Assembly (NCBI GenBank): GCA_012690745.1
Contig: GCA_012690745.1_4086.2
Length of the DNA: 64,000 bases
Strand: one strand, 5' to 3'
Origin: a phage
The notes under the pieces were generated by a model. That model saw only the letters and a list, made by a program, of their open reading frames with translations, did no database searches and was not told where the DNA came from. The position numbers were made by a program, and so were the translations under genes. Positions 21,526 through 21,774 of this stretch are shown here, piece by piece. Numbering within the stretch: position 1 is the first letter of the stretch; each line of letters opens with the position of its first letter.

Positions 21526-21563
21526 TGCGTAAAGGGATCTAGTACTGAATCAGAAAAAAGTCA

Positions 21564-21618
21564 AGGCGTTTTTAAAATAATGCGTTAAAAAAATGCATAG
21601 GTAATCCCTTGACTTTTT
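21564..21618. repeat. Long inverted repeat at the early-region / paralog-array boundary
   Basis: aaaaaagtcaagg (21564-21576) pairs with ccttgactttttt (21606-21618); additional gggatt/aatccc inverted segments nearby. Confidence 0.5.
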
Positions 21619-21716
21619 TAAAATAAAAGGGATTGGACTATGGCAAAATGCGTAGGGGGCTAAAGGGCGGGTAACCTTAGCGACTTCGATAAAGGGGTAT
21701 TACGAATAAAATGTTA

Positions 21717-21744
21717 TTGACTTTTTATACAATTCATATATTAT
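21717..21744 (+). promoter_or_regulatory. sigma70-like promoter at head of the small-paralog array
   Basis: -35 TTGACT 21717-21722, 16-nt spacer, -10 TATTAT 21739-21744. Confidence 0.55.
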
Positions 21745-21774
21745 ATGATTGATATTATTTTCAAGGGAGTCCCT

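Follow-up and report, generated by a model that had tools for sequence, protein, structure and literature searches.

We analyzed a window of 64,000 nucleotides of phage DNA, and within it the gap between two small genes that surrounds the right edge of a long direct terminal repeat (DTR). Judged by sequence identity, the source phage is a 350-kb Asteriusvirus (121Q/PBECO4-like) jumbo coliphage. Identity to phage 121Q is 96.7%, and the window matches 37 records, with Escherichia-phage labels on nearly all the matches listed. The gap runs in order from the last DTR gene through a hairpin followed by T6, the block GATTGGACTATG, the terminus T|TAGC (the bar marks the cut) and a promoter, to the first gene of an array of small paralogous genes (Table 1).

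In Pfam, the product of the last DTR gene has only a sub-threshold match to DUF7217, and that of the first array gene has zero matches. The array gene starts at an ATG preceded by the Shine-Dalgarno sequence AAGGGAG, and its homologues in 121Q and in vB_Ec-M-J (J for short) are annotated from the same ATG. Downstream of 21775 the ORFs are close-packed, at about 65-75 aa each. The labels “early gene” and “array gene” that an earlier note on this DNA had given to the two sides of the gap are fair, given the 69-aa ORF upstream and these packed ORFs downstream. Looking further along, paralogous ORFs of about 65-90 aa with overlapping stop and start codons run from 21775 to about 36000, and two of them that were tested have no Pfam match. 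A comparable array, of genes of about 60 aa, lies upstream of the left DTR border in phage E9.1 (record 1-3620).

The array promoter, which the earlier note had correctly placed beyond the hairpin, lies 40 nt outside the DTR. It is kept throughout the core Asteriusvirus group in our spacer alignment, and Klebsiella phage fENko-Kae01 (Kae01) has a TTGACA-17-TATACT promoter at the equivalent site. Inside the DTR edge, the untranslated stretch is 21526-21677, or 152 nt. Between genera, the spacer is 65% identical, versus 59-64% for the flanking genes; with a noisy null, the spacer is not clearly better conserved.

Several other candidate features of the gap were rejected. Promoters at the two upstream TTGACT copies have no usable -10 on either strand; mini-ORFs starting from a conserved CTATG are non-coding, with peptides that differ between genera; and the AAAGGG(A/G)T repeats, considered as a general signal, are not conserved outside the core group.

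Table 1. Features of the repeat and of the gap at its right edge, in window coordinates (^ and the bar mark cuts).
Feature	Position	Strand	Description
DTR, one copy	973-21677	+	20,705 bp; small “early” genes, densely promoted
Left terminus hairpin	973-998	+	AGTA GGCAGA ggaag TCTGCC g TACT; preceded by ...GCCACTA^
Last DTR gene	21316-21525	+	69 aa, from the ORF list; annotated homologues in all relatives
AGTACT copy in gap	21541-21546		Motif not specific to the boundary
Bipartite hairpin	21554-21619	+	Outer stem 21554-21566 / 21607-21619, 13 bp
Alternative small hairpin, AATCCCTT / AAGGGATT	21603-21634	+	Competes for the 3′ arm of the main hairpin
Conserved block GATTGGACTATG	21631-21642	+	Between hairpin and terminus; identical in fENko-Kae01 and Salmonella phage Munch
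DTR right boundary	21677-21681		T|TAGC, cut 21677|21678; bottom strand GTCGCTA^AGG
Promoter of the first unique-region operon (arrays)	21717-21744	+	Sigma-70-type; TTGACT, 16 nt, TATTAT; 10/12 match
First gene of the paralogous small-gene array	21775-21972	+	65 aa

The right end of the terminal repeat

The window has one copy of the repeat, and the ends were compared on the records of full-length relatives that carry both copies. On the left side, the J and E9.1 records open with 30 nt that match window 973-1002 exactly (30/30), and the records of fEgEco12 and ELP-22 also start with AGTAGGCAGAGGAAGTCTGCC…, that is, from window 973 onward. On the right side, J and E9.1 close with the 30 nt of window 21648-21677 (30/30), and six records (J, E9.1, fEgEco12, CRJP21, BF17 and G17) end at ...GGGCGGGTAACCT, which is window position 21677. 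The terminal base is fixed in that 6 of the 7 sequenced right ends are identical; ELP-22 (OR699282.2, BAU.Micro_ELP-22) deviates at its right end only. It shares the left terminus, its right end falls 128 nt short of the common terminus, and the deposited sequence has probably lost part of the right repeat copy. In WPEC3 and WPEC5, for which we used coordinates, the 69-aa gene is 152 nt from the record end, the same as in the others.

The spacing of the relatives' terminal sequences in the window is 20,705 bp, and the relatives' own repeats range from 20,107 to 21,525 bp. The two copies in E9.1 are identical to each other over 20,107 bp. The J record carries a “Direct Terminal Repeats” feature at 1..21525 that closes within the homologous gap, and its record end aligns to 21677. 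At the J junction (OQ718158.1, about 4173-4176) the sequence is AACCTTTAGC, with one T more than in the others, so that the terminus there is ambiguous by one base.

To judge from these deposited ends, the DTR boundary at 21677|21678 is almost certainly the physical right end of the virion DNA. The window would then divide into a unique-right part (1-972), a single DTR copy (973-21677) and a unique-left part (21678 onward), with the repeat presumably duplicated in this phage as it is in its relatives. The earlier note had seen here a boundary between the early region and the arrays. The boundary is real; what was missed is its nature, the right edge of a DTR of about 20.7 kb with the cut inside the interval.

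Long DTRs of Asteriusvirus are already published, and the boundary is annotated in GenBank for close relatives. The termini of fEgEco12 were determined by PhageTerm with restriction-digest confirmation (PMC13070987), the DTR of Sharanji is 20,668 bp by PhageTerm (PMC11895373), and a redundancy of about 20 kb was found in G17 by coverage (PMC6563267). At the level of the boundary, nothing in the window differs from the DTRs of fEgEco12, J, Sharanji and G17, which have the same termini, a similar repeat length and the same flanking genes. The publications consulted give the repeat length, but leave the hairpin, the conserved T|TAGC and the junction promoter undescribed. As a separate observation, the 23,073-bp record LC768489.1 (Klebsiella phage phiKp_21) includes a gene homologous to the last one of the DTR, and it may be a separately assembled contig of terminal-repeat size.

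The same boundary is found in a second genus. Kae01 has a DTR of 19,736 bp by PhageTerm, and the end so determined aligns to T|TAGC as well. Even with just 37.5% identity between its homologue and the 69-aa protein, the order of parts is that of the window: a gene of 68 aa, 145 nt of spacer, the end of the repeat, a promoter, and the next gene. Kae01 and the window have in common the blocks TTTTTAAAATAA, AAAAAAATG, TTGACTTTT, GATTGGACTATG and CCT|TAGC. All eight spacers that we aligned (the window, 121Q, J, E9.1, A4, EJP2, Munch and Kae01), the second genus included, have an invariant TTAGC at the boundary.

Searches of wider databases contributed no added diversity. Scans of IMG/VR gave 0 matches to the exact terminus motif and only 121Q itself with a gapped motif, and a metagenome scan gave three near-identical Asteriusvirus contigs plus two chance matches. 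Some tBLASTn matches, in RaK2, K64-1, Muenster and RCIP0023, were set aside as uninformative on the boundary; they are paralogues within gene arrays, with no downstream gap.

A hairpin upstream of the boundary

The hairpin starts 28 nt past the stop codon of the last DTR gene, and its 3′ arm lies 58 nt before the DTR end. The arms of the outer stem, AAAAAAGTCAAGG and CCTTGACTTTTTT, are 13/13 complementary with 40 nt between them, the 5′ arm beginning with A6 and the 3′ arm ending in T6. The inner stem pairs 21567-21573 with 21589-21595, or alternatively 21580-21586 with 21592-21598. Of 2000 dinucleotide shuffles of 21526-21774, only 1 produces a perfect inverted repeat this long (13 nt or more, spacer 60 nt or less). 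The whole 64 kb has four such repeats, two of which merely reflect the repeated palindromic AGTACT.

The long inverted repeats that the earlier note had described in the gap are there, then, and so are its gggatt / aatccc pairs. These correspond to AATCCC(TT) at 21603-21610 (AATCCCTT), which pairs with (AA)GGGATT at 21627-21634 (AAGGGATT); in the alignment this alternative hairpin is found in the core Asteriusvirus group only, and is absent from EJP2, A4 and Kae01. There is a further GGGAT copy at 21534-21538.

Secondary-structure prediction, which the earlier note had proposed as a check, gives for the 76-nt hairpin a free energy of -19.9 kcal/mol as RNA (z -4.9, reached by 0 of 200 shuffles) and of -12.5 kcal/mol as DNA (z -4.2). 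The fold of the entire 220-nt gap is less exceptional (z -3.1). In Rfam 15, no family matches at its gathering threshold (bglG-cis-reg 26.4 bits (80), Plastid-psbJ-4 21.7 bits (55.2)).

The second proposed check was to compare this junction in related genomes. We observe a strong hairpin, of different sequence, at the same position in every lineage, and the TTAGC is kept with it. The core group has the 13-bp outer stem plus the inner stem; Kae01 has three tiers of 7+5+10 bp; A4 has a perfect, strand-symmetric 12 bp, TAATTGAGTCAA / TTGACTCAATTA; and EJP2 has AAGTACTG / CAGTACTT plus an outer stem. The core group contains two haplotypes, and the changes between them preserve pairing: the inner stem reads GCG-, GCA- or GTA-UUUUU opposite AAAAAUGC, which makes G·U, A-U or U·G pairs.

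Over five distinct sequences, 92% of the cells are paired, versus 37-63% when the partner is slid. In the same five, changes from C-G to U·G and from G·U to A-U leave the inner helix 100% paired; in the outer helix, two pairs are altered on both sides. The covariation score is reached by 13 of 500 shuffles, a figure that comes from a small sample of five sequences. The two strands are not equivalent. The sense RNA is more stable than the antisense by 2-6.5 kcal/mol in 6 of 7 sequences, with 1-3 G·U pairs in the sense strand versus 0-1 in the antisense. A U tract follows the hairpin in the core group (T6) and in Kae01 and Munch (UUUUCU in Kae01), and A4 and EJP2 are without it. In all likelihood the hairpin is real and under selection.

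The hairpin as a candidate terminator

We lean slightly towards an explanation in which the locus is a junction between the DTR and unique sequence that carries a hairpin 3′-end element, an end-formation site and the array promoter. For the hairpin itself, whether it is a terminator-like RNA element, or a 3′-end element, that would close early DTR transcription is close to an even call. A role in the sense RNA is the best single reading, given that the sense strand folds more stably, that the hairpin starts 28 nt past a stop codon and that U6 follows it.

The part of the stem at 21560-21613 has a free energy of -12.7 kcal/mol and is followed by T6 on the same strand as the upstream gene. By stem energy, it ranks fifth among the plus-strand sites in the window that combine a hairpin with a T-run. 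The DTR genes have sigma-70-type promoters, which makes intrinsic termination relevant, and these phages encode a sigma factor, without an RNA polymerase of their own (PMC11895373). The base of the stem, GUCAAGG/CCUUGAC with A6 before and U6 after, resembles that of the A-tract/U-tract “bidirectional” intrinsic terminators of E. coli and its phages.

Compared with those terminators, the hairpin here is unusual: its loop is 40 nt and contains an inner helix, instead of the usual 3-8 nt, and its stem is AT-rich. This is not the compact, GC-rich form that other hairpin-plus-T-run sites in the window take (e.g. at 7874, 16431 and 58754), and a pattern-based terminator scan of the window did not call it. 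The G17 and Munch records carry regulatory features, yet no terminator is annotated at this site. Besides, TTTTTAAAATAA in the loop and GATTGGACTATG in the flank are conserved across genera, and a plain terminator does not need them. The earlier note had suggested a strong terminator. A terminator is reasonable, but the strength is not borne out by an atypical hairpin that in A4 and EJP2 has no U tract.

The processing hairpins of T7 early mRNA that are cleaved by RNase III have a helix of about 20-22 bp with an internal loop, and are intergenic. The hairpins described here are also intergenic and have helices that total 13+7 bp in the window and 7+5+10 bp in Kae01. They differ in that the A4 hairpin has just 12 bp, and in matching no Rfam family at threshold.

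In packaged DNA, the right-hand repeat copy would stop at 21677 (…GGGTAACCT), and the left-hand copy, like a concatemer, would run on into TAGCGAC…, the promoter and the small-gene arrays. We infer that the hairpin, in the sense transcript, would serve as a factor-independent terminator or as a hairpin that stabilizes the 3′ end. Transcription of the early DTR genes by the host RNA polymerase would be closed before the repeat boundary, and the array operon would then be driven by its own promoter only. A packaging nuclease would make the right terminus at T|TAGC with the upstream block GATTGGACTATG, and RCTA^ on opposite strands at both borders would provide for staggered nicks, followed by copying of the repeat.

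Cut sites and the left terminus

The two borders, at 966-974 and 21676-21684, share a short motif on opposite strands: the left border reads GCCACTA^AGTAGG on the top strand, and the right border reads GTCGCTA^AGGTTA on the bottom strand. The left borders in the other lineages are CCACTA| in A4, GCACTA| in EJP2 and CCGCTA| in Kae01, the boundaries of A4 and EJP2 being placed by homology only, and the neighboring sequence on both sides differs between lineages. On the bottom strand, GCTA^AG is found at every right border. Altogether, CTA is kept at 8 of the 8 border sites examined, in four lineages. The symmetric RCTA^ fits the classical scheme of staggered nicks and fill-in, a mechanism that we infer from a motif that is short.

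The left terminus itself opens with a hairpin, which occupies its first 26 nt and has a DNA fold of -6.9 kcal/mol (z -4.4). The left terminus of Kae01 (771-793 of its examined segment) has an unrelated hairpin that also begins at nucleotide 1 (z -2.5). A hairpin from the first nucleotide of the left terminus could matter for end protection or priming.

A candidate inverted repeat across the right cut (GCTAAAGG…CCTTAGC) was rejected, as its fold equals that of shuffles (z 0.06). Three further observations concern the region next to the left terminus. According to the E9.1 annotation, the first 1.6 kb or so of the DTR (973 to about 2640) is apparently without a sizeable forward gene; it is full of AGTACT-containing repeats, for example ATTCAGTACTGAAT twice at 2543-2609; and a UUCG-type hairpin, TTTACCC TTCG GGGTAAA, lies at about 1108-1125 between direct repeats of TTCAATTACCCCTT.

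AGTACT is abundant well beyond the boundary. The 64 kb contain 255 copies versus 17.4 expected, a 14.7-fold excess, with the next palindromic hexamer at 2.2-fold. Per kb there are 6.3 copies in the DTR, 1.3 in the gene arrays and 3.5 further on, and examples are found at 894, 954, 1312, 1352, 19898, 20361 and 21541. Sigma-70-type early promoters often have it, in the form YAGTACTG, within their -35 or directly behind it (16 of 73 TTGAC[AT] sites), and AGTACT is also plentiful at the Kae01 left junction. An operator or a modification target are possibilities for its role. A 12-bp hairpin (AAAGGGATTGACTCTGGTCAGTCCCTTT) includes the -35 of one DTR promoter, TTGACT-17-TATTAT in window 20186-20225, and the sequence AAAGGGATTGAC upstream of this promoter resembles AAAGGGATTGGAC at 21626-21638.

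Other explanations for the hairpin

The hairpin may instead act as DNA in chromosome-end formation, any effect on transcription being incidental. Set at a fixed distance of about 60 nt before the cut, it could serve the small terminase subunit, or some other protein that processes the ends, as a recognition site or architectural element; alternatively, it could form a snap-back structure during copying of the 20-kb repeat. What gives a DNA role, unlikely in our view, some weight is that the loop is long and the stem AT-rich, the scan did not call the hairpin, U tracts are missing in some lineages, and the loop and flanks are conserved.

The positional evidence for a DNA role is that hairpin and terminus are 58 nt apart in the core group and separated by much the same length in Kae01, A4 and EJP2, with blocks conserved between genera in and beside it. 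The hairpins of A4 and EJP2, which lack the U tract, include in A4 a perfect 12-bp palindrome that is strand-symmetric. Near the left border, a perfect 12-nt inverted repeat at 836-847 / 882-893 (AATCATATATAA / TTATATATGATT, spacer 34 nt) precedes the left cut by 80 nt on the same strand, just as the hairpin precedes the right cut. When the perfect inverted repeats of the window are ranked by length, five of the top ten are within or near the DTR ends, and the left terminus opens with a hairpin in two genera.

On the other hand, pairing that depends on G·U and a stability advantage of the sense strand are both unexpected for a cruciform, and in Kae01 the DNA-fold z is only -1.1 over the whole spacer. 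The two border regions have no convincing recognition sequence in common, sharing just the ubiquitous AGTACT and one 10-mer (TAAAGGGGTA / TACCCCTTTA). The large cruciform that the earlier note had proposed is, for the same reasons of sense-strand stability and G·U pairing, not favored. Its suggestion of a recombination site came near the mark, insofar as this would be a place of site-specific DNA end formation; the cut itself is 58 nt downstream of the inverted repeat.

The terminal repeat of T7 is 160 bp, and a hairpin intermediate at the T7 junction was reportedly described by Chung, Nardone and Hinkle in 1990. The repeat here is 20.7 kb, and the terminase gene of this phage is outside the window. 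The likeness to T7 and T3 consists in exact, sequence-defined ends that flank the repeat and in cis sites near the junction, as PacB and PacC are at the concatemer junction in T7 packaging (PMC9860248). We take T7-type PacB/PacC signals as a functional analogy only.

A more specific proposal is that the hairpin, GATTGGACTATG and the RCTA^ at both borders together form the cis signal that specifies the exact ends and the duplication of the 20-kb repeat. There would be strand-specific nicks 20.7 kb apart, leaving 5′-AG ends in the core group, followed by displacement synthesis. We rate this combination as unlikely, slightly less probable than a DNA role in general. If it were true, it would give a defined, mutable sequence handle on the generation of long DTRs, which according to a 2026 packaging review is still poorly understood (PMC13595956).

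It is very improbable that the hairpin is functionless, left over from a local duplication and inversion that involved the promoter -35 and the segment upstream of it. The idea has some basis in the sequence, as TTGACTTTTT or its complement occurs in the 64 kb only at 21555 (complement), 21609 and 21717, the last of which supplies the -35 element of the array promoter, and another DTR promoter (20188-20215) also has its -35 inside a hairpin. But the hairpin is kept in place in four lineages with differing arms, wobble and double changes maintain the pairing, the chance expectation is the 1 in 2000 given above, and the upstream and middle copies of TTGACTTTTT have no usable -10.

In T5, the candidate injection stop signal, Repeat Region 3, is at the end of the left repeat with an overrun of 270 bp, and consists of 1.2 kb of nested repeats with about eight paired DnaA boxes (Davison, bioRxiv 10.1101/866236). 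A T5-like stop, with the DTR entering the cell first and transfer pausing at the untranslated end of the left repeat until the DTR-encoded early proteins are made, is the reading that we consider least probable of all: the phage does share with T5 a long DTR of small early genes with host-type promoters, and an untranslated segment with inverted repeats that straddles the boundary at the right edge of the repeat, but this segment is 152 nt long, with essentially one hairpin in place of many nested repeats over 1.2 kb, no cluster of DnaA boxes is present (one 9-mer with one mismatch in 21400-21800, within the promoter), and the fEgEco12 and Sharanji publications do not report two-step injection for the genus (PMC13070987, PMC11895373).

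Implications

As the DTR itself is already published, the advance made here is one of detail, not of kind. The hairpin and the symmetric RCTA^ at both boundaries appear to be undescribed. The boundary provides a precise landmark for the right end of the packaged chromosome and for the point where the early-gene repeat stops. This landmark aids the orientation and annotation of Asteriusvirus records, many of which are permuted or are missing the second copy of the repeat. It is also useful for engineering these phages, which are candidates for therapy. Finally, the hairpin, the T|TAGC and the RCTA^ symmetry are testable candidate signals for how the ends of long DTRs are formed and how early transcription is insulated.
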